Shown piece after piece: positions 153 through 36,310 of a DNA stretch of 36,310 bases. How positions within the stretch are numbered: the stretch's first letter is position 1; the number at the start of each line of letters is the position of its first letter. This DNA comes from a virus. The position numbers and the translations under genes are program-made. Under the pieces are notes generated by a model that was not told where the DNA came from, did not search any database, and saw nothing but the letters and a program-made list of their open reading frames with translations. The stretch lies in the IMG/VR virus record IMGVR_UViG_3300042273_000209. One strand, 5' to 3'.

Positions 153-197
153 CCCAAGTAGCCAACGCACATGGGAGCCAATCAGGGAGGCGAGCGA

Positions 198-512
198 ATG
201 AACCAGGCCCGAAAAGACGACCACGGCAAGCTTCGGTTTGACCTGATCCCGCCGGGGCCGCTGAAGGAAGTGGCCGCCATATACACCGTCGGGGCCGAGA
301 AATATGGCGACCGCAACTGGGAGCAGGGGTTGGCCTGGGGGCGCGTTTTTGCCGCCATCCAGCGCCACCTCTGGGCCTGGTGGGGCGGGGAGGAGCTAGA
401 CCCCGAGGACGGCCTGAGCCATTTGGCCCATGCGGCCTGGGGATGTTTCACGCTGATGGAGTACGCGCAGACCCACCCGGAGATGGACGAGAGGAAGGAG
501 GCGACAGAATGA
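198..512 (+). CDS. MazG-like dATP/dGTP diphosphohydrolase-domain protein (putative)
   Basis: Motif KDDHGKLRFDLIPP...GAEKYGDRNW...RHLWAW recalled from phage NTP pyrophosphohydrolase-like proteins; GGGAGG RBS before ATG 198. Confidence 0.5.
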   Translation: MNQARKDDHGKLRFDLIPPGPLKEVAAIYTVGAEKYGDRNWEQGLAWGRVFAAIQRHLWAWWGGEELDPEDGLSHLAHAAWGCFTLMEYAQTHPEMDERKEATE

Positions 513-757
513 GCATATCGCTCCGAATTCTCTCGCCGCCTGATCGACCTGGTGGTGGAGCGGGCGATGGAGATAGTGGGGGCCTCCTGATGGATTTTCC
601 GCTGACCTGCCCCAGGTGTGGATCACGCGAGATCTGCACGGCGGGGAGGGGAGAGCATCAGACGGAATATGGCCTGCACTGCTCCTCCTGTGGCCACGAG
701 GGGTGGGGGAAAACGATAAGTGAAGCGATAGATCAATGGGAGGCGGTGGAGGAATGA
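509..757 (+). CDS. Lar-family-like restriction alleviation zinc-ribbon protein (putative)
   Basis: CPRCGS...CSSCGHEG...EAIDQWEA pattern; ATGA overlap with upstream stop; alternative start at 590. Confidence 0.5.
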   Translation: MSISLRILSPPDRPGGGAGDGDSGGLLMDFPLTCPRCGSREICTAGRGEHQTEYGLHCSSCGHEGWGKTISEAIDQWEAVEE

Positions 758-2642: not shown

Positions 2643-3134
2643 GTGGCTAAGATCAAAGTGACAAAAAAGCGCGTTGAGGAATTGACTCCATACTCCAGAA
2701 ATTCAAGGACGCACAGCGACGCGCAGGTCGCGCAGATAGCAGCATCTATACGCGAGTTTGGTTTTATAAATCCCGTCTTGGTTGACGCGGAAAACAACAT
2801 CATCGCCGGCCATGGGCGCGTGCTGGCAGCCCGAAAACTCGGTCTTGAGGAAGTGCCGTGTGTACTCCACGATCATCTGACGGAGACGCAGCGCAAGGCG
2901 TATATCCTTGCAGACAACAAACTTGCGCTCAATGCAGGATGGGATGAAGACATGCTCCGCTTGGAATTGCGCGAGCTTGGTGACATGGGTTTTGATTTGG
3001 AGTTGACGGGGTTTGATGAGGTAGAAGTTGAGGCATTAAACCATAAGGTGAATATAGATGATTTTTTTTCAGACAGAGAAGGAGAAGTGCCAAAGGAACC
3101 TAAGTTATGCCCTCATTGTGGTGGTGTTTTATGA
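2643..3134 (+). CDS. ParB-like nuclease-domain protein (possible DpdB-like partner of DpdA)
   Basis: ParB N-terminal motif INPVLVD...IIAGHGRVLAARKLGLEEVPCV; GTG start; stop overlaps start of next gene. Confidence 0.6.
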   Translation: MAKIKVTKKRVEELTPYSRNSRTHSDAQVAQIAASIREFGFINPVLVDAENNIIAGHGRVLAARKLGLEEVPCVLHDHLTETQRKAYILADNKLALNAGWDEDMLRLELRELGDMGFDLELTGFDEVEVEALNHKVNIDDFFSDREGEVPKEPKLCPHCGGVL

Positions 3135-3865
3135 GGATTCACCTTGCGGGGATAGTTAGAGCTAGTTGTTGCATTGAAGAAGCAAGGAAGGCTCTTTTTG
3201 TTCTCGAATCGTTCCAGACTATAAATAGGTGGGTTGTAGAATCAATCCCGTATTGGAAGTCTTTTATCCTTGACAGTGGCGCTTTTACATATATGTCAAA
3301 CACTTCAAAAGGTGGAAGTGTAAATTGGGAAGACTATGTGAGCAGATATGCTGATTTTATCAAAAACCACAAAATCAAACATTACATAGAGCTTGACATT
3401 GATTCAATCGTCGGACTTAAGGAGGTTGAGAGATTACGCAATATCCTTGAAAACAAGGTAGGGTATCCATCAATACCAGTATGGCATAAAAGCAGGGGGA
3501 AAGATGAGTTTATACGCATGTGCCGTGATTACAAATATGTAGCGATTGGTGGAATCGTAACGAAGGAGTTCACACGAAAGGATCATAAATACTTCCCATG
3601 GTTCATAGACAAAGCGCATGAAATGGGAGCGGAGATACACGGGCTGGGATACACTTCAAGCAACTTGAGGAAATACCAATTCGATTCCGTTGATTCCACA
3701 AGCTGGCTTAGTGGCGGAAAATATGGCAGTTTATGCGTCTTGAAAAACAAAAAAATTAAATATGTTACCGTGAAGGGGAAAAAAATTTCACGGGATCAGG
3801 ATGCAAATGTTCATAACTTAAGAACTTGGATTATGTACCAAAAACTATTATACGATGGGAAATAA
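3131..3865 (+). CDS. dpdA: DpdA-like tRNA-guanine-transglycosylase-family protein (putative 7-deazaguanine DNA transglycosylase)
   Basis: ILDSGAFTYM resembles the TGT catalytic DSGGFQ motif; AT-rich cassette next to YhhQ-like gene. Confidence 0.5.
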   Translation: MRIHLAGIVRASCCIEEARKALFVLESFQTINRWVVESIPYWKSFILDSGAFTYMSNTSKGGSVNWEDYVSRYADFIKNHKIKHYIELDIDSIVGLKEVERLRNILENKVGYPSIPVWHKSRGKDEFIRMCRDYKYVAIGGIVTKEFTRKDHKYFPWFIDKAHEMGAEIHGLGYTSSNLRKYQFDSVDSTSWLSGGKYGSLCVLKNKKIKYVTVKGKKISRDQDANVHNLRTWIMYQKLLYDGK

Positions 3866-3877
3866 TCAGGAGGGTTT

Positions 3878-4486
3878 ATGGAAAAAAACAATAGAAACCT
3901 AATCACGATCAATGCTGTTTTTGTAGTCAGTCTTATCATGGCTAATGTCGTGGCGTCGAAAATCGTTGACGTTTTTGGATTTGTAGTTCCCGCTGCCGTT
4001 GTTGCTTACGGGATCACCTTCCTTTGCACGGATGTTATTGGTGAGATTTGGGGGAAGGAAGAAGCAAACAAGACCGTCAAATTGGGGTTTGTTATGCAAA
4101 TCCTATCTCTATGCCTTATCATTTTGGCGATAATGCTTCCGCCGGCGGTTTTTGCTGTTGAAGAGGGAAAGTCTTTTAATTCAATACTGGGGCAATCTGG
4201 AAGGGTGGTAGTTGCTAGTCTTATCGCCTACTTGGTAGCTCAATTCAATGATGTTTATGTTTTCCACAAACTGAAAGGCGCTTGCAACGGAAGAGCAAAG
4301 TGGATTCGGAACAATGGAAGCACTATTTTAAGCCAGTTTTTCGACACTGCAATTTTCATTACTGTGGCGTTTTACGGAGTAGTCCCTGACCTTGGATGGA
4401 TGGTTATCAGTCAGTATGTTGTAAAGGTCGTGATAGCGCTCTGTGATACACCTTTATTCTACTTCTTTACACGTAAAAGTGTATGA
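3878..4486 (+). CDS. yhhQ: Queuosine precursor transporter, YhhQ/DUF165 family
   Basis: Multi-TM protein; VVASLIAYLVAQFNDVYVFHKLK and CTDVIGEIWG resemble E. coli YhhQ; AT-rich. Confidence 0.7.
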   Translation: MEKNNRNLITINAVFVVSLIMANVVASKIVDVFGFVVPAAVVAYGITFLCTDVIGEIWGKEEANKTVKLGFVMQILSLCLIILAIMLPPAVFAVEEGKSFNSILGQSGRVVVASLIAYLVAQFNDVYVFHKLKGACNGRAKWIRNNGSTILSQFFDTAIFITVAFYGVVPDLGWMVISQYVVKVVIALCDTPLFYFFTRKSV

Positions 4487-4522
4487 AAAAATACTGGCGC
4501 AATGGGGTAGGAGGCGATTTTT

Positions 4523-25677: not shown

Positions 25678-25974
25678 CTACAAATGCGTATACAGCCCTG
25701 TTTCGGCTGCGAAGACTGCCTGGAGCTGGTCGAAGTAAATGCCTTCGACCGTCTCCTCCGTTTCGACGTCTCCCCACTTCCCCAGCTTGCAAAACCGGAG
25801 GTCGTAGACGTCGGCTGGGGTCAATGTGACCTCCAGGTAGTTATACCTTGCGGATCCCCTGAATTTAAATCGCAGGGAATCCCTTGTAGCCACAAGGTGT
25901 TTTGCACCAGTCATGGCGACAAACATGTTGCCGCCGAGCTGGTCCAGTATCGTCGTTGCTACGGTGGTGTCCAT
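25678..25974 (-). CDS. Hypothetical protein (minus-strand block gene a)
   Basis: GGGGGAGG RBS upstream; balanced composition unlike antisense frames. Confidence 0.6.
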   Translation of the reverse strand: MDTTVATTILDQLGGNMFVAMTGAKHLVATRDSLRFKFRGSARYNYLEVTLTPADVYDLRFCKLGKWGDVETEETVEGIYFDQLQAVFAAETGLYTHL

Positions 25975-26006
25975 TTTCGTCCTCCCCCTTGTTTTTTTAC
26001 CTGACG

Positions 26007-26059
26007 GGCCTCATCAGTGGCGGCGTCACCGCCAGACGCCCGCGAAGGGCGTTTCGGCC
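26007..26059 (-). ncRNA. Type II hammerhead ribozyme motif, copy 1
   Basis: Minus strand: ggcc-GAAA-stem III (cgccc/gggcg)-UC cleavage site-stem I (uggcgg/ccgcca)-CUGAUGA-ggcc; all core nucleotides present. Confidence 0.55.
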
Positions 26060-26089
26060 TAGGCTTCCTCCTCGTCGGGGATATAGTCG

Positions 26090-26127
26090 ACCTTTCGGTG
26101 AAGATGCCAGGGGCCCTTCGGCCCCTG
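26090..26127 (-). repeat. Intercistronic repeat element A (hairpin plus aucuucaccgaaaggu box)
   Basis: Same 16-nt box and flanking GC hairpin recur at 26466-26505. Confidence 0.5.
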
Positions 26128-26144
26128 CCCCCTGGCATTAAGTT

Positions 26145-26435
26145 CTACAGCTCGATGACGTCCGGTGCGTCGCGCAGGATTTTCATGTACCGCAGATGCT
26201 GGTACATGTACTGCGGACCCTGGTTGATCTCGACGACCTCGACCTGGCCGCCGAGGGGTGTGGTGTGCAGAGTGACAACCTCTTCGATGCCCTCGCTGAC
26301 CTCCTCGCGGCTTGCCTCGGCCTCCTCGGTGCCCTCGGGCAGGGCGATGGCGATCCCGTCCTCGTCGCTGCCGGGGTACGTCTCCCAGAACTCCATGTGG
26401 CCCGGAATACGGGAACTCTCGATCCAAAATCCCAT
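26145..26435 (-). CDS. Hypothetical acidic protein (gene b)
   Basis: AAGGAGGG RBS upstream. Confidence 0.6.
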   Translation of the reverse strand: MGFWIESSRIPGHMEFWETYPGSDEDGIAIALPEGTEEAEASREEVSEGIEEVVTLHTTPLGGQVEVVEINQGPQYMYQHLRYMKILRDAPDVIEL

Positions 26436-26465
26436 GGCGATCCCTCCTTTTAGGGGCTATATGCA

Positions 26466-26505
26466 ACCTTTCGGTGAAGATAGTAGGGGCCCGAAGGGCT
26501 CCCGC
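26466..26505 (-). repeat. Intercistronic repeat element B (copy of box plus hairpin)
   Basis: Box identical to copy A; hairpin loop inverted with stem preserved. Confidence 0.5.
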
Positions 26506-26506
26506 G

Positions 26507-27064
26507 CTACGCGTCATCTCCCTTTTTCGCGATCGCCTCACGGGCGTTGTGGATGCCCGTGAGGACGCACGTGTACTCTTCTTTCAGGGCGGCGAGCGCC
26601 ACCCGTTTCCAGGCGGCGAGGGCCTCCTCTGGCGTCGGCGCGCGCCCAATCTCGCACCGACTCTTCATCCAGGAGGTCAGCCGATCGAACTGGCTTAGGC
26701 CCTCGACGCTGAACTCACAAACGTCACGGTATCTGTCGCTGAAACCGTGACGCAGCGTCACCAACCCCTGATGCCTCCCCTGGGCGGGGGAGATATACAG
26801 GTCCTCGACGCCGATGCCGTTGAACACGTCGAGGAAGAATTGCAAGGTGGACTCGATCTCAGACGCGGCGGCGAGTGCCGCCTCCGGGTGGGCGGCTGCC
26901 ATGGCCCGTGTGACCTCGGGGCCATATCCGCGATGCCCCGCCTCCCGGAACACGGCGTACCACCCCGCCGTGCCGTGGGGCGGCGTCGTCGTATCGTGCT
27001 GCTCCACCCCTCCGGAGAAAAAATCATCTCCGTGGGGCATGGGCCCCTCAGTGAACCACGACAT
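26507..27064 (-). CDS. Hypothetical protein (gene c)
   Basis: GAAGGAGGA RBS; protein-like composition. Confidence 0.6.
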   Translation of the reverse strand: MSWFTEGPMPHGDDFFSGGVEQHDTTTPPHGTAGWYAVFREAGHRGYGPEVTRAMAAAHPEAALAAASEIESTLQFFLDVFNGIGVEDLYISPAQGRHQGLVTLRHGFSDRYRDVCEFSVEGLSQFDRLTSWMKSRCEIGRAPTPEEALAAWKRVALAALKEEYTCVLTGIHNAREAIAKKGDDA

Positions 27065-27113
27065 CTTTTTCCTCCTTCCCCCGCCCGTGCGGGAATCAAC
27101 GGGGCCTGTGCCC

Positions 27114-27167
27114 CGGCCTCATCAGTGGCGGCTCTACCGCCAGACGCCCCTTGCGGGGCGTTTCGGC
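27114..27167 (-). ncRNA. Type II hammerhead ribozyme motif, copy 2
   Basis: Same architecture as copy 1; stem III closed by GCAA tetraloop, stem I loop differs; CUGAUGAG and GAAA cores intact. Confidence 0.55.
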
Positions 27168-27551
27168 CTAGGCGTCGTCGACGTCGTCGACGTCCTGCAG
27201 GGCCTCGAGGTGCTCCGCGATGAACTCGCGGAGTAGACGCCGTTTTTCCCTCATCGAGTCGGCCAGCTCGTAGTCTGCCGACTCGCTGACGGGGAGGGGG
27301 TACTCGCTGTACCCCATCCCCTTGCAGATGGCCCGCTCGACCATCTGCAGGAGCTTAAGGTCATACTGCCCCACGGGTTCGCCGTCGTACATCGCGAACC
27401 CGTGGACTAGTGCGTCTTGGACGCTGCGCCCCCACTGGCCAATCGTGCCAGCAGAGGCAAAAAACCCCACGTGGACACTGCTACCGCGCCGGGTGACGCG
27501 GTAGAGATCCCCGCGCCGGATCGGGTCGTGGTGCAATGAGAACCTTTTCAT
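27168..27551 (-). CDS. Hypothetical protein (gene d)
   Basis: GAAGGAGGA RBS before internal ATG; 5' UTR paralogous to that of gene c. Confidence 0.55.
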   Translation of the reverse strand: MKRFSLHHDPIRRGDLYRVTRRGSSVHVGFFASAGTIGQWGRSVQDALVHGFAMYDGEPVGQYDLKLLQMVERAICKGMGYSEYPLPVSESADYELADSMREKRRLLREFIAEHLEALQDVDDVDDA

Positions 27552-27622
27552 TCTGTCCTCCTTCCCCCGCCCCGTGGCGGGAGCACTGTCCCCCCTTGCG
27601 CCCTGTGGCGCAGGAGGGAGGG

Positions 27623-27652
27623 AGAAAAAAGGGGAGCCGAAGCCCCCCCTTT
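27623..27652 (-). terminator. Rho-independent terminator or attenuator after gene e
   Basis: Minus strand: 7-bp GC stem with UUCG tetraloop followed by UUUUUU. Confidence 0.6.
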
Positions 27653-27669
27653 GTCGGCGAGGCCTAGCT

Positions 27670-28116
27670 TCAGGCCTCGCCGTTGGCCCGTGCCGCCATC
27701 CGGCGAGCACGGGCAAGAGAGCCCGCCGGAAGCTCCGGGGCGTAAAAGCCCCGGTGGCGGAAGATTGCTGTCTTCCGCACGGATCCGTCCGGGAGCGTCT
27801 CTTCGACGGACTCCCGTACGGAGAAGGCGTACACGGGCGCGATGCCCGCGTTCGCTAGCTCGCGTTCGAGTGGGGCCATCAGCCACATGGCCCCTCCGAT
27901 CATGGCGAGGACCTCGTCGCCTTCGCCGACGTTCCCCGCCGCCCGCCGGGCGATTTCGGCAATCGCCCGGGCGCGAGCCTCGGGCTCCCCGTCGCGGGGG
28001 AGCTCCGTGAAGGTGAGGAGCTCCTTGAGCTCCTCGTGGTCGGCCCCGGTGAGGTCGACCACCCCGGCCTCGACCTGCTCGGTCGAGGCTTGGTGCTGCG
28101 TGAGATTCAGGATCAT
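27670..28116 (-). CDS. Hypothetical protein (gene e)
   Basis: AAGGAGGG RBS before ATG at 28116; longer upstream extension rejected. Confidence 0.55.
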   Translation of the reverse strand: MILNLTQHQASTEQVEAGVVDLTGADHEELKELLTFTELPRDGEPEARARAIAEIARRAAGNVGEGDEVLAMIGGAMWLMAPLERELANAGIAPVYAFSVRESVEETLPDGSVRKTAIFRHRGFYAPELPAGSLARARRMAARANGEA

Positions 28117-28270
28117 CCTGAATCCCTCCTTTCTGCCCCATCTGGGGGCGATGAGATCGGGCCGAGGCCCGTCGTTTCCTTTGTTCCCCCCGCTTGGCCG
28201 CCCGGAAAGGGCGTTGCCCGCCGACCGCAGCGTGGAGGCGCGGGGGTTGGTCGGCATCTACGGCCAGGAG

Positions 28271-28612
28271 CTAAACCTGGTCGTAGAGTTGTACCTCGCC
28301 GCGTCGGCGAGGCAGGAGGCGGTATTCCGTCACCGCCTCCGCCGAAGGAGCCACGTAGATCGTGGCCCCCACGGCCTTCTTCGCCGATTTCCCCCGCGCA
28401 AGGGGCGCGTAGGGTTCGGCGTCGTGGGCCCGGACGACGTAGATGCTGCCGCCCGGGCCCGCGTACTGCACGGCCTGGTCCCAGGACGTGGTGAAAAACG
28501 CCACGTCCCGGAACCCCCGCCTCTCCTCTTCCCCCGCACGGATGTTTCCCGTGCGGGACGAGGGGAGAATTTCCCTCAGGCCCCGGATGGGGCTCCCATG
28601 TAGAAGTTCCAT
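28271..28612 (-). CDS. PARP-like (H-Y-E type) mini ADP-ribosyltransferase candidate (gene f)
   Basis: LLHGS; F-x10-Y segment FFTTSWDQAVQY; later TEYRLL, read as the H-G-S / Y-x10-Y / catalytic Glu signatures of PARP and diphtheria-toxin-like ARTs. Confidence 0.4.
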   Translation of the reverse strand: MELLHGSPIRGLREILPSSRTGNIRAGEEERRGFRDVAFFTTSWDQAVQYAGPGGSIYVVRAHDAEPYAPLARGKSAKKAVGATIYVAPSAEAVTEYRLLPRRRGEVQLYDQV

Positions 28613-28651
28613 CCGGGGCCCCCTTTCCGGGGCCTCGCGGCCCGTTTCGAC

Positions 28652-29095
28652 CTAGTTCCCCTCCGCCCGCATGAGGCGGAGGGAGAGGGGCAAATCCCAC
28701 GCCGACAGAGTCTCCGCCCTGTCGGCGTCGTCCATCCCGAGGTCCAGACGTCCGTAGGCGTCGTACCTCGGGGCCGGGGCCTTGTCGGCCCCCTCCTCGT
28801 CGGCGCGCTCCTCGGTGATCTCGATTACGATCACCGGGATCGCTTCCAGGCCCGCCAGTCTCGCCGCGGCAATGCGGTGAGACCCGGTGTGGGCCTGGAG
28901 GCCCATGGGTGACTGGGAGGCCAAGATCGGCCGCCCCTGCCACCCATGGGCCTCCATGGATGCCGTCAGGGACGCCAGTTTTTCAGCGTCCCTGACCTCG
29001 TGCGGAGGCTCGACCTCGTTGGGGTCGGCCTCCGCCTCTGCTTCCGTTAGGGTGACCGTCCATAGGTCACCCCACTCGTCCTGGATCTGGGGCAT
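28652..29095 (-). CDS. ParB-like N-terminal-domain protein (gene g)
   Basis: GRPILASQSPMGLQAHTGSHRIAAARLAGLEAIPVIVIE; AAGGAGGTG RBS before ATG 29095 (alternative ATG 29194). Confidence 0.6.
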   Translation of the reverse strand: MPQIQDEWGDLWTVTLTEAEAEADPNEVEPPHEVRDAEKLASLTASMEAHGWQGRPILASQSPMGLQAHTGSHRIAAARLAGLEAIPVIVIEITEERADEEGADKAPAPRYDAYGRLDLGMDDADRAETLSAWDLPLSLRLMRAEGN

Positions 29096-29323
29096 GACGG
29101 TCACCTCCTTCCTTTTTTTTTTGCCCTGGCAGTGGCTGGTGTCGTCGACCTCGCCCGGCTCGCGCTGCCCCTGGGGGGGCTTCGCGGCGGTCATGGCGCG
29201 GGTGGCTGACGACGCTGCCCGATGCCAGTCGATGGGTGCCAGGGGATACTTTCCCGCCCGGCTTTCTGTCGGCCGCCCATCGCGGCCTTCCCGTTGTCAA
29301 GGTCCCTGTCGCTTGGTGATTAC

Positions 29324-29352
29324 ATTATATATGCCGTTGGGCAGTTGTGCAA
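29324..29352 (-). promoter_or_regulatory. Sigma70-like promoter for the minus-strand block (TTGCAC-17-TATAAT)
   Basis: Near-consensus -35 and -10 with 17-nt spacer on the minus strand. Confidence 0.55.
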
Positions 29353-29382
29353 TAGGCCTATAGGACCATCTTGCACAACTGC
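29341..29382. promoter_or_regulatory. Candidate operator: 12-bp perfect inverted repeat GCAGTTGTGCAA-N18-TTGCACAACTGC
   Basis: Perfect 12-bp arms; left arm overlaps the minus-strand -35. Confidence 0.55.
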
Positions 29383-29402
29383 ATCTGGTACTTTTCGCCT
29401 AC

Positions 29403-29431
29403 TTGCGTTATAGTGATATCTGTGGTATTGT
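29403..29431 (+). promoter_or_regulatory. Sigma70-like promoter for the RHH gene (TTGCGT-17-TATTGT)
   Basis: Hexamers about 40 nt upstream of ATG 29469. Confidence 0.4.
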
Positions 29432-29468
29432 GGGTGGCAGATATTATCGAGGAGGGGGGTGTACCAAA

Positions 29469-29660
29469 ATGTCCAACAACATCCGCAACATCCGCAACAT
29501 CCGCATCGCCACTCCGGCCACGCCGGAGATGGCACGTCAATTTCGTATCGCCTGCGCCGTCGCTGGGCGCAGGCAATCGGAGGTGTTGAGGGAGTTGATC
29601 CAACGATGGGTCAGCTCCCAATCGACGGCCCGCTCAGGCGGGAATGCTGCCAACGGTTGA
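29469..29660 (+). CDS. Ribbon-helix-helix (CopG/Arc-like) DNA-binding protein
   Basis: GAGGAGG RBS; RHH-like segment; contains 3 x 9-nt repeat encoding IRNIRNIRI. Confidence 0.55.
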   Translation: MSNNIRNIRNIRIATPATPEMARQFRIACAVAGRRQSEVLRELIQRWVSSQSTARSGGNAANG

Positions 29661-29844
29661 GAGACATTTTGACCGAGGCCCTCGCCTGATTCGAATCACG
29701 CACCTTGAAAATCCAACGCCGGAGCCGCCCAGGCGACGAACAGGGGGCGGCACGCACCGGAGCCGTAGGGATGAGCCGATGGCCATGACGCCCGAGGATC
29801 GGCGACGAGGGTGCGGAGGAGAGGGAAGGAGGAACCGATCACGG

Positions 29845-30126
29845 ATGAGCCGCGAGCGGGACGAGATGCGGCAAGCCGTTACGGAGATGACCCTGGTTAG
29901 GCTCCCCGCAATCGGGTATGTACGGCTCCCGCAAATCTTGGCCGTCATCCCGATCGGGCCCACCACGTGGTGGGAGTGGATCAAGGCCGGCATTGCGCCT
30001 TCCCCCATCAAATGGGGGAGCAACGTTTCGGTGTGGGCGGCAGAAGAAATCCTGTCGCTCATAGCCAGGTTGCGCTCCGGGCTCCCCCCAGGGGGAGAGG
30101 CACGAGAAAGGGAGGCGACGAAATGA
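29845..30126 (+). CDS. AlpA-like HTH regulator / excisionase-like protein
   Basis: LPQILAVIPIGPTTWWEWIKAGIAPSPIKWGSNVSVWAAEEI resembles AlpA family; AAGGAGGA RBS. Confidence 0.5.
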   Translation: MSRERDEMRQAVTEMTLVRLPAIGYVRLPQILAVIPIGPTTWWEWIKAGIAPSPIKWGSNVSVWAAEEILSLIARLRSGLPPGGEAREREATK

Positions 30127-30389
30127 TCGAACGCCTAGTCCAGACCGGCGCCATCCGCGGCCCGTACCGGCGGCCATCGTGGATGTCAAGGCTCTGGCGC
30201 TCATTCGCCGGGCTTTTCGAGCCGGTGCCGGAGTCCAGACCCGTCGTCGCGGTGATTCTCCGCGACCCCTTGACGGAGATCGAGGATGTCCTGGGGTTCA
30301 ATAACGCCGAAGCCGCCTATGACTGGCTGGAGGGGCATATCGAGCGTTGGGCAGGGGGCTACATCGCCCTGTGGGAGCCGCGCCGATGA
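30123..30389 (+). CDS. Hypothetical protein
   Basis: ATGA coupling. Confidence 0.45.
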   Translation: MIERLVQTGAIRGPYRRPSWMSRLWRSFAGLFEPVPESRPVVAVILRDPLTEIEDVLGFNNAEAAYDWLEGHIERWAGGYIALWEPRR

Positions 30390-30532
30390 ACGTCGAGAAA
30401 CGTTACCGCCGTTTGCTCCGCACCGCCCGCCGGCTTAGGCGGCGGGGCCTGGCCTGGCACGATGCCAGGGTGCGGGCGGTGGAGGTTGGGGCGCGACGGC
30501 TGCGCGAGAAGAAGAGGAGGTGCTGGGCATGA
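30386..30532 (+). CDS. Hypothetical small basic protein
   Basis: ATGA coupling. Confidence 0.35.
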   Translation: MNVEKRYRRLLRTARRLRRRGLAWHDARVRAVEVGARRLREKKRRCWA

Positions 30533-33360: not shown

Positions 33361-34410
33361 ATGACCGGTGACTATCGCATTAAAATAGGCTTCTTCCGGC
33401 ATCACAAGACCAAGCGCCTCAAAAAGAAAGGCGGAGCTGATGCCGTCGTTGCCCTGCTTCAGCTTTGGGAATGGGCAGCGGAGCAAAGGCCCGACGGAGA
33501 CCTGCGCGGCCTGTCCGCTGAGGACATCGACATCGTCGTCGATTGGGACTCAAACATGCCGTTGGCCACACTCCTCTCCGAGGCGGGATTCCTGGATGGT
33601 GACGAGGGAGAGTATCGGTTGCACGACTGGGCCGACCACAATCCCTGGGTAGCCGAATCGGCGCGGAGGAGCGACGCCGCCAGGCTGTCGCGGCTGGCCC
33701 GCGAGAACCCCGAGGCGGCCTCGGCCCTGCGAGACGAGGGGCGTATTGGCATCACCGAAGAAGAGTATCGCGCGCTAAAGCTCGGCACGAATAACGAGCG
33801 TGACACAAACATGAAACAACCGAACAACGACCGTAGTACGACCGTAGTACGACCGTCAACGCTTCGTTCTACTCCTGCTCCTGCTCCTGCTCCTGCTCTT
33901 GATCCTGCTCTTGATCCTGCTCTTGATCCTGAACCAAAAGACAAGGGTCAAAAGCAAAAGACGTCGCCTGGGCTATCGCCGGCGACCCCTTCGGCGGCCC
34001 CACCACCCCTGATCCAGCCGGAGGATATCCCCTACCAGGCCATCGTGGATGTCTATCACGAGGTGCTGCCGGAGCTCCCCAGGGTCCGCATACTAACCGA
34101 TGCACGCCGAAAGGCGATTCGCAGCCGGCTGAGATCAGATGCCGACCGGCGCGATCTGGAGTGGTGGAGGCGCTATTTCCTGGCAGTTCGACCGTGCCGC
34201 TTTCTCTTCGGCGCGAATAACCGCAACTGGACGGCCTCGTTCGATTTCCTGCTAAGCCAGAAGGGCATGGCCGGAGTCCTCGAAGGCAAGTACGCGGACA
34301 GAAAAGGCGCGACCGCGACGCCGTCCGGTTCCATCGCTGCCTACGTTGACGCGATGTTCCCGGACGAACCGGATGTGCTCGATGCGGAGGTGATTGGCGG
34401 TGACGGATAG
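33361..34410 (+). CDS. Putative replication initiation / organizer protein with internal tandem-repeat linker
   Basis: Position in replication module; conserved C-terminal segment WTASFDFLLSQKGMAGVLEGKY. Confidence 0.45.
   Translation: MTGDYRIKIGFFRHHKTKRLKKKGGADAVVALLQLWEWAAEQRPDGDLRGLSAEDIDIVVDWDSNMPLATLLSEAGFLDGDEGEYRLHDWADHNPWVAESARRSDAARLSRLARENPEAASALRDEGRIGITEEEYRALKLGTNNERDTNMKQPNNDRSTTVVRPSTLRSTPAPAPAPALDPALDPALDPEPKDKGQKQKTSPGLSPATPSAAPPPLIQPEDIPYQAIVDVYHEVLPELPRVRILTDARRKAIRSRLRSDADRRDLEWWRRYFLAVRPCRFLFGANNRNWTASFDFLLSQKGMAGVLEGKYADRKGATATPSGSIAAYVDAMFPDEPDVLDAEVIGGDG
33830..33930 (+). repeat. Cluster of short tandem repeats (candidate origin iterons)
   Basis: ccgtagtacga x2.5, cctgct x4, cttgatcctgct x3 in direct succession. 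Confidence 0.6.
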
Positions 34411-36009: not shown

Positions 36010-36310
36010 ATGTCATTCATCAATCCGTGTCACCGCAGACTCGCCTATGGCGACGGTCACATCCAGGGCGACGGCCAGCTCGGCCAGGTGGTCCGCGTGG
36101 TCGGCGACGACCTGTTCGCCGTCAACACCGATCCCACCAAGCGCTCCTTCGGCATCCTGATCAAGGACTACAAGAACGGAGAGATGCCCGGCATCTACTG
36201 CGACGGCGGCGTTTACGAGACTGACGCCTTCGAAGGGACCGTCGTCGCCGGAGACGACCTGAAAGTTTCGGCGAGCGGTCGGCTGACCAACGGCATCGCG
36301 GCCGGAGAGC
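36010..36310 (+). CDS. N-terminal part of junction-spanning gene (continues at 3-152); hypothetical beta-rich protein
   Basis: AAGGAGGG RBS 6 nt before ATG; frame stays open into the terminal repeat. Confidence 0.4.
   Translation, partial: MSFINPCHRRLAYGDGHIQGDGQLGQVVRVVGDDLFAVNTDPTKRSFGILIKDYKNGEMPGIYCDGGVYETDAFEGTVVAGDDLKVSASGRLTNGIAAGE
36221..36310. repeat. Terminal direct repeat, copy of 1-90
   Basis: Identical to bases 1-90. Confidence 0.9.

Follow-up and report, generated by a model that had tools for sequence, protein, structure and literature searches.

What governs the point at which the genes of a phage part into two opposite directions of transcription? The question is raised by the IMG/VR record IMGVR_UViG_3300042273_000209, a stretch of 36,310 nt of viral DNA that we refer to as the window. 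Its two ends (1-90 and 36221-36310) are identical over exactly 90 nt, which indicates a circularly closed phage genome of ~36.2 kb, and tailed-phage gene content is found across it. At 29324-29660 lies a control region followed by a gene for a small ribbon-helix-helix (RHH) protein. The control region is the exact joint between a leftward accessory block of 3.5 kb (25678-29095), whose first gene encodes a ParB N-terminal domain, and a rightward gene set, and it is the most AT-rich stretch of a neighbourhood of otherwise 60-70% GC. The initial annotation saw here a divergent control region and a genetic switch through which the RHH protein would control the accessory block. The divergent promoters, the position of the inverted repeat over the -35 element of the leftward promoter (P-left) and that of the RHH gene as the first of the rightward transcript all stand, and we found that promoters, repeat and RHH gene co-occur as a cassette of ~350 bp in at least four other phage backbones. 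As to the switch itself, sequence evidence makes it, in our judgement, slightly more probable than its opposite that RHH dimers on the arms of the repeat block the -35 element of P-left and so shut the accessory operon.

The 12-bp perfect inverted repeat with an 18-nt gap, as first described, was recovered with its arms, GCAGTTGTGCAA (29341-29352) and TTGCACAACTGC (29371-29382), complementary at 12 of 12 positions; the 18-nt spacer between them (29353-29370) contains a local palindrome, ATAGGCCTAT. Shuffling the 171 bp at 29300-29470 5000 times never produced a 12-nt repeat like it, and shuffles of the whole window held 0.095 such repeats on average, so that the repeat is non-random. The 8-mer TTGTGCAA occurs once in the 36.3-kb window, as does TGCANNNNTGCA of the right arm, and no extra copies of the putative operator were found elsewhere in the genome. 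P-left, on the minus strand, has its core at 29324-29352, with a -10 TATAAT (29329..29324), a -35 TTGCAC (29352..29347) that falls within the left arm, as had been claimed, and a predicted start near 29317. A promoter scan read it as TGCACA (29351..29346)-16-TATAAT, with 10 of 12 matches, the alternative reading being TTGCAC-N17-TATAAT, and found no other promoter-like match within 28500-30500. Its earlier description as near-consensus is apt for the -10 (6/6) and generous for the -35 (3-4/6). The plus-strand promoter beside the repeat (P-right, 29403-29431) was read from the sequence, its weak -35 lying below the threshold of the scan: TTGCGT (29403-29408), a 17-nt spacer with TG at 29423-29424, and TATTGT (29426-29431), with a predicted start near 29438-29440, ~122 bp from that of P-left. 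The T-A-T-x-x-T hexamer of this promoter and its upstream TG are kept in nine of the nine distinct cassette variants over which we counted conservation (TATTGT, TATCGT or TATCAT). Measured to the centre of the right arm, the distance is ~62 bp from the rightward start and ~60 bp from the leftward one, upstream in either case.

The RHH gene extends on the plus strand from an ATG at 29469 to a TGA at 29660 and encodes 63 aa. It is preceded by a strong ribosome-binding site (GAGGAGGGGGG, 29449-29459), its frame has a third-position GC of 0.75, and six close homologs of 48-54 aa support it over an overlapping frame. On its own the protein has nothing in Pfam at E <= 0.1 and, in PHROG, a weak resemblance to an Arc-like repressor (E 0.024); the sequence search of the PDB came up empty with it alone, and adding its six close homologs brought no match in either Pfam or the PDB. 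Only a 13-member profile, in which an exhaustive hidden Markov model search placed six distant homologs beside the window protein and its six close ones, succeeded: it matched the RHH domain of ParG (PDB 1p94, E 1.6e-6), aligning residues 5-45 to ParG 35-75 across the ribbon and both helices. Twelve of the 13 members match Pfam ParG, nine RHH_10 and five RHH_1 (best E 7.4e-7, a value that relatives of the window protein also reach against ParG; the window protein itself does not match RHH_1). An AlphaFold2 model (predicted local distance difference test score, pLDDT, 69.8) has an extended N-terminal segment at 10-18 and helices at 19-32 and 36-56, the ribbon strand being unable to form in a monomer model; we place the ribbon at ~10-18, helix A at 19-32, the turn at G33-R35 and helix B at 36-56. 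The turn glycine G33 is invariant in the window subfamily (subfamily 1) and nearly so across the 13 sequences, within a motif A-G-R-x-Q-S. Foldseek against the PDB returned almost only RHH proteins on top (ParG, CopA_SO, TacA, AtaR, PutA, Arc, CopG, NikR), with a root mean square deviation of ~1 A over 34-39 residues and yet E > 0.6, which is not significant, as expected for ~40 residues. The RHH assignment of the initial annotation is thus confirmed, from sequence and at family level only, as a ParG-like type. Identity with the partition protein ParG itself was rejected, as the window protein does not reach the cut-off of Pfam and none of the contexts scanned has a ParA/ParF gene beside it.

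The 3 x 9-nt direct repeat noted at the 5' end of the gene is also real: CAACATCCG is repeated three times at 29477-29505 (plus strand) and encodes (Asn-Ile-Arg)x3 (NIR) just before and into the ribbon. Three NIR copies are present in the window protein, two in the homolog P0001 and one in the other five close homologs, so that the codons opening the DNA-reading ribbon have expanded recently by slippage; the expansion lengthens the basic N-terminal tail. A separate observation on this gene is that the nine bases around its start (CAAAATGTC, 29465-29473) are complementary at 9/9 positions to bases following its stop (GACATTTTG, 29663-29671), which could reflect pairing of the messenger ends or be a trace of the cassette boundary.

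The related contigs retain the RHH gene and ~170 bp that comprise the promoters and the repeat, at 80-90% DNA identity, with quite different flanks. The large and small terminase genes terL and terS and a T7-type portal gene, as in a podovirus-like phage, surround the cassette in L001, L003-L005 and L012-L013; radical SAM, ParB_N and Terminase_3 genes do so in L002, and a gene for a 90-aa protein and a PDDEXK_1 gene in L008-L011. The cassette is thus self-contained and horizontally exchanged between unrelated Synergistaceae phages. The RHH protein is the sole protein co-inherited with the control DNA across these backbones, and neither the AlpA-like nor the ParB_N-like gene that adjoins it in the window is found in the other backbones carrying the cassette. 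That the RHH protein alone is always linked to the control DNA is the main argument that it acts there. No relative of the cassette was found in INPHARED, none in IMG/VR with three DNA patterns and one profile scan, and no description of it in a literature search. We also noted in these contigs, which come from anaerobic-digester samples, that L012 and L013, two independent assemblies, both begin 300 nt upstream of the RHH gene, breaking at one base, and that the contigs L003, L005, L009 and L010 also end inside the cassette or at its edge. Such breaks are consistent with the cassette being a repeat common to co-occurring phages, which breaks assembly graphs.

Conservation is unevenly distributed within the control region. 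Variable columns number 3 of 29 in the P-left core (29324-29352), 1 of 12 in the left arm, 11 of 18 (61%) in the inter-arm spacer, where no cassette has an indel, and 5 of 12 in the right arm. All but one of the latter lie in the inner half of the right arm, which reads TTGCAC, TTGCGC, TTACAC or TTGAAT (box TGCA, TGCG, TACA or TGAA), while the outer AACTG is kept. Only one indel occurs in the region, ATC/ATCA after 29385, in the stretch that leads from the repeat to P-right. The fixed distance between the arms, together with the position of this indel outside the repeat, suggests that it is P-left, and not P-right, with which the right arm is in phase.

What could an RHH protein recognise in these arms? 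With the preceding G the left arm reads GGCA-GTTG-TGCA, its tetramers 8 bp apart, and with the next base the right arm reads TGCA-CAAC-TGCA; L008 has a clean tandem GTTGTGCA GTTGTGCA. All five KGCA boxes within 29315-29445 (29340, 29348, 29372, 29380 and 29436) share one 8-bp register, an arrangement found in 0 of 20,000 shuffles for a motif that was defined post hoc, after inspection of the sequence. The ribbon of ParG reads degenerate tetramer boxes at a fixed 8-bp period, to which dimers bind cooperatively, and the spacing is set by helix-helix contacts between neighbouring dimers: when other ribbons are grafted on ParG the box changes and the spacing does not (PMC3413123). The element bound by CopG is likewise reported to be pseudosymmetric and to span two TGCA motifs (PMC3413123).

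A second subfamily bears on this point. L015, reached through a homolog of the leftward ParB_N-like gene, encodes at the same position, beside that leftward homolog, a distant RHH-family protein of 49 aa (hhalign probability 96.5%) with a ribbon K-I-C-V-L-V, versus N-I/V-R-I-A-T in subfamily 1. In the control DNA beside it, GCGC boxes recur at offsets 15, 23, 31 and 39 and then at 79, 87, 95 and 103, strictly 8-bp periodic, the two clusters standing 40 bp (5 x 8) apart in a single register and covering TTGCGC-N16-TATAAT leftward and TTGCGC-N17-TATACT rightward. The same layout adjoins terS in L018-L023, and the GCGC array of L018 is also strictly 8-bp periodic. In having the same helices, a different ribbon with a different box and the same 8-bp period, the two subfamilies resemble the grafted ParG proteins, which is the strongest indirect support for an RHH protein at the arms. 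Two further features of these relatives deserve mention. Between the subfamily-2 RHH gene and terS of L015, ~350 nt (190-540, minus strand) are very AT-rich and repeat-laden and may be a packaging or replication site. In L018 (4720-5639) a serine recombinase and an HTH_17 gene are inserted between terS and terL, so that some phages of the group may be temperate, the window phage showing no integrase.

The directions of transcription receive support from an unrelated source. A 23-nt stretch of the RHH gene had one genome match, in a CRISPR array of a Synergistaceae metagenome-assembled genome (L006, JAESII010000004.1, 16-4898). The array has 78 repeats in 8 kb, and the adjoining Cas6 and Csm5 genes indicate type III-A. 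Within 1.7 kb of the window (27818-29540), ten of its 77 spacers find a match; seven fall in accessory genes (27818-28122), a pair in the P-left leader (29252-29279 and 29279-29300) and a single one in the RHH gene. Several fit other cassette variants better than the window, and further spacers match the radical SAM gene of L002. When the array is read so that its repeat ends in ATGGAAAC, an orientation that it shares with the cas genes, the CRISPR RNAs are in ten of ten cases complementary to the predicted sense transcripts, those of the leader and accessory genes being on the minus strand and that of the RHH gene on the plus strand. As type III-A immunity is transcript-dependent, the polarity of the spacers is independent, if indirect, support for divergent transcription, and the leader matches place the leftward start upstream of 29300, fitting ~29317. 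The distribution of the targets suggests that type III-A spacers prefer the early divergent transcripts. The spacers also point to the Synergistaceae as the host lineage.

We propose the following mechanism, in which DNA binding, its site and its sign are what we infer from the anatomy, the fold class, the co-inheritance and the transcription directions described above. The RHH protein would be made, together with early genes, from P-right, a sigma-70-type extended -10 promoter, whereas P-left, sigma-70-type with a consensus -10, would drive a leader of ~220 nt, the ParB_N-like gene and the rest of the accessory block. The four TGCA-type boxes (29340, 29348, 29372 and 29380) in the untranscribed interval form the predicted operator, on each arm of which a pair of RHH dimers would bind cooperatively. 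The left-arm pair (centre ~-30) would occlude the -35 element of P-left and turn the accessory operon off. The right-arm pair, 30 bp away and on approximately the same helix face, with three register steps between the inner boxes, would stabilise the complex; at ~-60 of both promoters, it could also modulate P-right. The accessory operon would thus be expressed in an early burst and then shut off. Since the RHH gene has its own promoter downstream of the repeat, any autoregulation must differ from the repression of P-left. The window proteins scanned (Pfam, PHROG, PDB) include no recognisable integrase or CI-type repressor; 'switch' is to be understood as the timing of early operons and not as a decision between lysis and lysogeny.

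Repression of P-left from the arms has several observations against it. The repeat is 12/12 only in the window and L008/L009, two of the nine variants, so that perfect symmetry is not itself under selection, and the conservation of the left arm is no more than its role as a -35 element would explain. The best-conserved non-promoter stretch, ATCTGGTACTTTTCGCCTAC (29383-29402, 2 of 20 columns variable), lies outside the repeat, between the right arm and the -35 of P-right, and is left unexplained by the model. The cassettes are all 80-90% identical, and conservation arguments are accordingly low in power. Where ParG sites have AT-rich stretches between the boxes, the window has GTTG and CAAC, which are not AT-rich, and the periodicity of GC content at lag 8 is only marginal (p 0.013-0.08). 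On the protein side, the window protein alone scores below the Pfam ParG cut-off (PF09274, 12.9 vs 21.4 bits, E 0.13). In L024, a distant member, the repeat is located within the promoter of the RHH gene itself, a layout absent from the window, and boxes within the RHH gene's own promoter are the usual layout of the family (L024 and subfamily 2). Finally, an operon of L014 includes a homolog of the RHH protein that has the same ribbon, and no such site lies nearby; the upstream sites of L017 and L014 yielded nothing informative.

One alternative is that the RHH protein autoregulates P-right, through 29412-29429 or 29383-29402, the inverted repeat being bound by another factor of host or phage, or being merely the -35 region of P-left. 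This is the least unlikely of the alternatives, although we give it clearly less credence than repression of P-left from the arms. The inverted repeat lies upstream of P-right and not within it. The block 29383-29402 and the 9-bp direct repeats AGTGATATC and TGTGGTATT (29412-29429, plus strand), which overlap the extended -10 of P-right and are kept as RGTGNTATY x2 in all cassettes, are conserved at least as well as the right arm; and L024 and subfamily 2 carry their boxes, as said, where such autoregulation would have them. From their sequence, the direct repeats might serve as a further operator or have arisen by duplication of the -10, and it counts against autoregulation that they coincide with TGnTATnnT, as a duplicated -10 would. 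No DNA-binding protein besides the RHH protein is inherited along with the cassette. Moreover, this explanation leaves the fixed 18-nt spacing of the arms and the shared 8-bp register of the boxes unexplained. In a separate comparison by eye, the region gave no convincing match to the box consensus of IHF or LexA.

One might speculate further that the cassette is a portable two-way switch, in which one RHH protein on a ParG scaffold uses the same four-box site to repress P-left and to help its own P-right. The left arm at ~-30 would act on an early, possibly anti-defence operon, and the right arm at ~-62 would take the position of a class-I activator. Slippage of the NIR codons (n = 1-3) would tune affinity, a swap of ribbon would change the box (TGCA vs GCGC) with the 8-bp spacing kept, and the whole unit would be swapped among Synergistaceae phages. 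As a combined proposal we find it improbable, more so than autoregulation of P-right.

A still poorer candidate is that the repeat consists of duplicated back-to-back -35 elements with no operator role, the right arm being a vestigial or alternative -35 (TTGCAC, plus strand) of a second rightward promoter. TTGCAC is indeed present in both arms, facing outward, the inner half of the right arm drifts like a decaying element, and the box clusters of subfamily 2 enclose the -35 hexamer (TTGCGC) of either promoter. However, the 12-nt match, with its 0/5000 shuffles, exceeds a shared hexamer, the scan returned no plus-strand promoter there, and 16-18 nt downstream of the right arm there is no -10-like hexamer (TTTCGC, TTCGCC, TCGCCT), for which reason we rejected this role of the right arm. 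That the repeat is instead a hairpin or cruciform, serving for example in termination, as an RNA element, as an origin of replication or in packaging, is the least credible of all, in spite of its folding energy as single-stranded DNA (-14.3 kcal/mol, z-score -5.1), its AT-rich setting and the position of the cassette just upstream of terS in several relatives, as the repeat lies between the starts at ~29317 and ~29439 and is hence transcribed from neither promoter, has no T-run and no Rfam match, loses its pairing in relatives (L002 has a C-A mismatch and L012 two or three mismatched positions; these true mismatches also led us to drop the idea of G-U-preserving substitutions in the arms), and lies in the window 11 kb from terS. 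A lambda O-like gene, of a kind usually found with its own origin, is located in the window at 33361-34410.

The proposed repression of P-left by an RHH protein encoded across the divergent promoters can be compared with several known systems. The best match to the window family in sequence and structure is ParG, the centromere-binding autorepressor of parFG on plasmid TP228. They have in common a small RHH domain, a flexible N-terminal tail and an 8-bp box period, putative in the window and clearer in subfamily 2. Unlike in ParG, no ParA/ParF partner was found among the neighbouring window genes scanned or in other cassette contexts, the window holds no centromere array but only 2+2 boxes, which are TGCA and not ACTC, and the site lies upstream of the divergent promoter, whereas that of ParG lies downstream of the -10 of its own promoter. 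CopG, the 45-aa copy-number repressor of pMV158, is likewise a minimal RHH protein encoded first in its operon, and its element is comparable to the arms (TGCA-N4-TGCA and GGCA-N4-TGCA). The CopG target overlaps the -35 of a promoter, but CopG represses its own promoter, whereas the -35 covered in the window is that of the divergent P-left, and the window has two such elements 30 bp apart.

Among phages, a comparable arrangement is the immI region of P22, where Arc is encoded by the first gene of its operon and lowers expression after an early burst. As with Arc and Mnt, a phage RHH gene stands first in its operon at divergent promoters; the Arc operator, however, lies inside its own promoter, the sequence relation is at superfamily level only, and the window lacks Mnt or an antirepressor, its downstream gene being AlpA-like and its first divergent gene ParB_N-like. 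In function, the RHH protein would be analogous to lambda Cro at OR, a small repressor that comes first on the rightward early transcript and acts on the leftward promoter. Cro is a helix-turn-helix protein with three adjacent 17-bp operators, in contrast to the window, and lambda has CI and a lysogeny decision. In NikR and FitAB two RHH dimers contact half-sites 14-16 bp apart, comparable to the 18-bp gap here, but they are bridged by a tetramerisation domain in NikR and by the toxin partner FitB in FitAB. The 48-63-aa proteins of the window family have neither, and unlike FitAB the cassette has no conserved partner gene. Unlike Aca loci, the RHH gene is transcribed divergently from the accessory block and not downstream in the same operon.

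The cassette is thus a real, fairly ordinary phage control region with an RHH-type repressor unit of a known sort. That phages and plasmids place small RHH repressors at promoters is textbook matter, and no concept is changed here. What the locus offers is a small unit (~350 bp), seemingly complete in itself, in which promoters for both directions are combined with a repressor, from phages of the uncultured and little-studied Synergistota, with natural variants in the box (TGCA, GCGC) and the tail (1-3 NIR) that are open to direct reporter tests in E. coli. It also marks a recombination joint at which early modules are exchanged between unrelated phages, and provides both a link to Synergistaceae hosts and an example of type III-A spacers focused on early divergent transcripts.

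Leftward, the P-left transcript begins with an untranslated leader of ~220 nt (29096-29317, minus strand). A type A leader, with ~200 nt of homology, is found in the window, L001, L008, L011 and L012/L013; in type B (L002, L004) homology stops at ~29290 and the leader is different. The leader RNA had no Rfam match, no compensatory pairs by RNAalifold among type A sequences and an unremarkable fold (z-score -1.44). A leader peptide of 29 codons from a conserved ATG was rejected, since by our reading of the alignment its frame is lost in L008 and L011. A motif at 29292-29304 (minus strand GGGACCTTGACAA), ~14-26 nt into the leftward transcript, is also present upstream in L020, L021 and L023, so that modules of both RHH subfamilies have it in common despite their differing leaders; it holds a perfect TTGACA with no matching -10.

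The first leftward gene (28652-29095, minus strand) has a Shine-Dalgarno sequence, GGAAGGAGGTGA, and encodes 147 aa that match Pfam ParB_N (E 1.9e-6) and ParB-like PHROG families; an upstream in-frame ATG (29194) is not conserved. The rest of the block (25678-28612, minus strand) comprises five or six small genes picked by third-position GC, and apart from phrog_9437 no Pfam, PHROG or PDB match was found for the accessory proteins other than ParB_N; the single-sequence AlphaFold2 model of a 148-aa product was unusable (pLDDT 48.8). Two further inverted repeats lie in this block. One, a perfect 16-nt repeat with a 29-nt loop (TGGAGGCCCATGGGTG ... CACCCATGGGCCTCCA, 28896-28911 / 28941-28956) within the ParB_N-like coding sequence, is far beyond chance in shuffles and might be a binding site of the ParB-like protein or an RNA element. 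The other is again a perfect 12-nt repeat with an 18-nt gap (GGCCCCGGATGG-N18-CCATCCGGGGCC, 28579-28590 / 28609-28620), where the gene 28271-28612 begins. L001, which lacks the ParB_N-like gene, has a similar sequence (~450-495), so that the ParB_N-like gene looks like an insertion into the leftward operon.

Rightward, the set that starts with the RHH gene continues with an AlpA/excisionase-like helix-turn-helix gene (29845-30126, plus strand, start at 29779 or 29845; phrog_66, E 8.5e-5; third-position GC 0.77) and includes a DUF3799 exonuclease, RecT, SSB and the lambda O-like replication protein, as well as RusA, HNH, terminase, structural and lysis genes. In L001, the stretch from the RHH gene to terS (1085-1250) shows by eye two or three hairpins followed by T-runs; the RHH gene may there form its own short transcription unit, the late operon needing antitermination or a separate promoter. 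Elsewhere in the window, an island of low GC at 3001-4500 (0.38-0.44 vs ~0.6 elsewhere) holds two membrane-protein genes (252 and 202 aa), directly preceded by a second ParB_N-like gene (2643-3134), and looks like a recently acquired insert.

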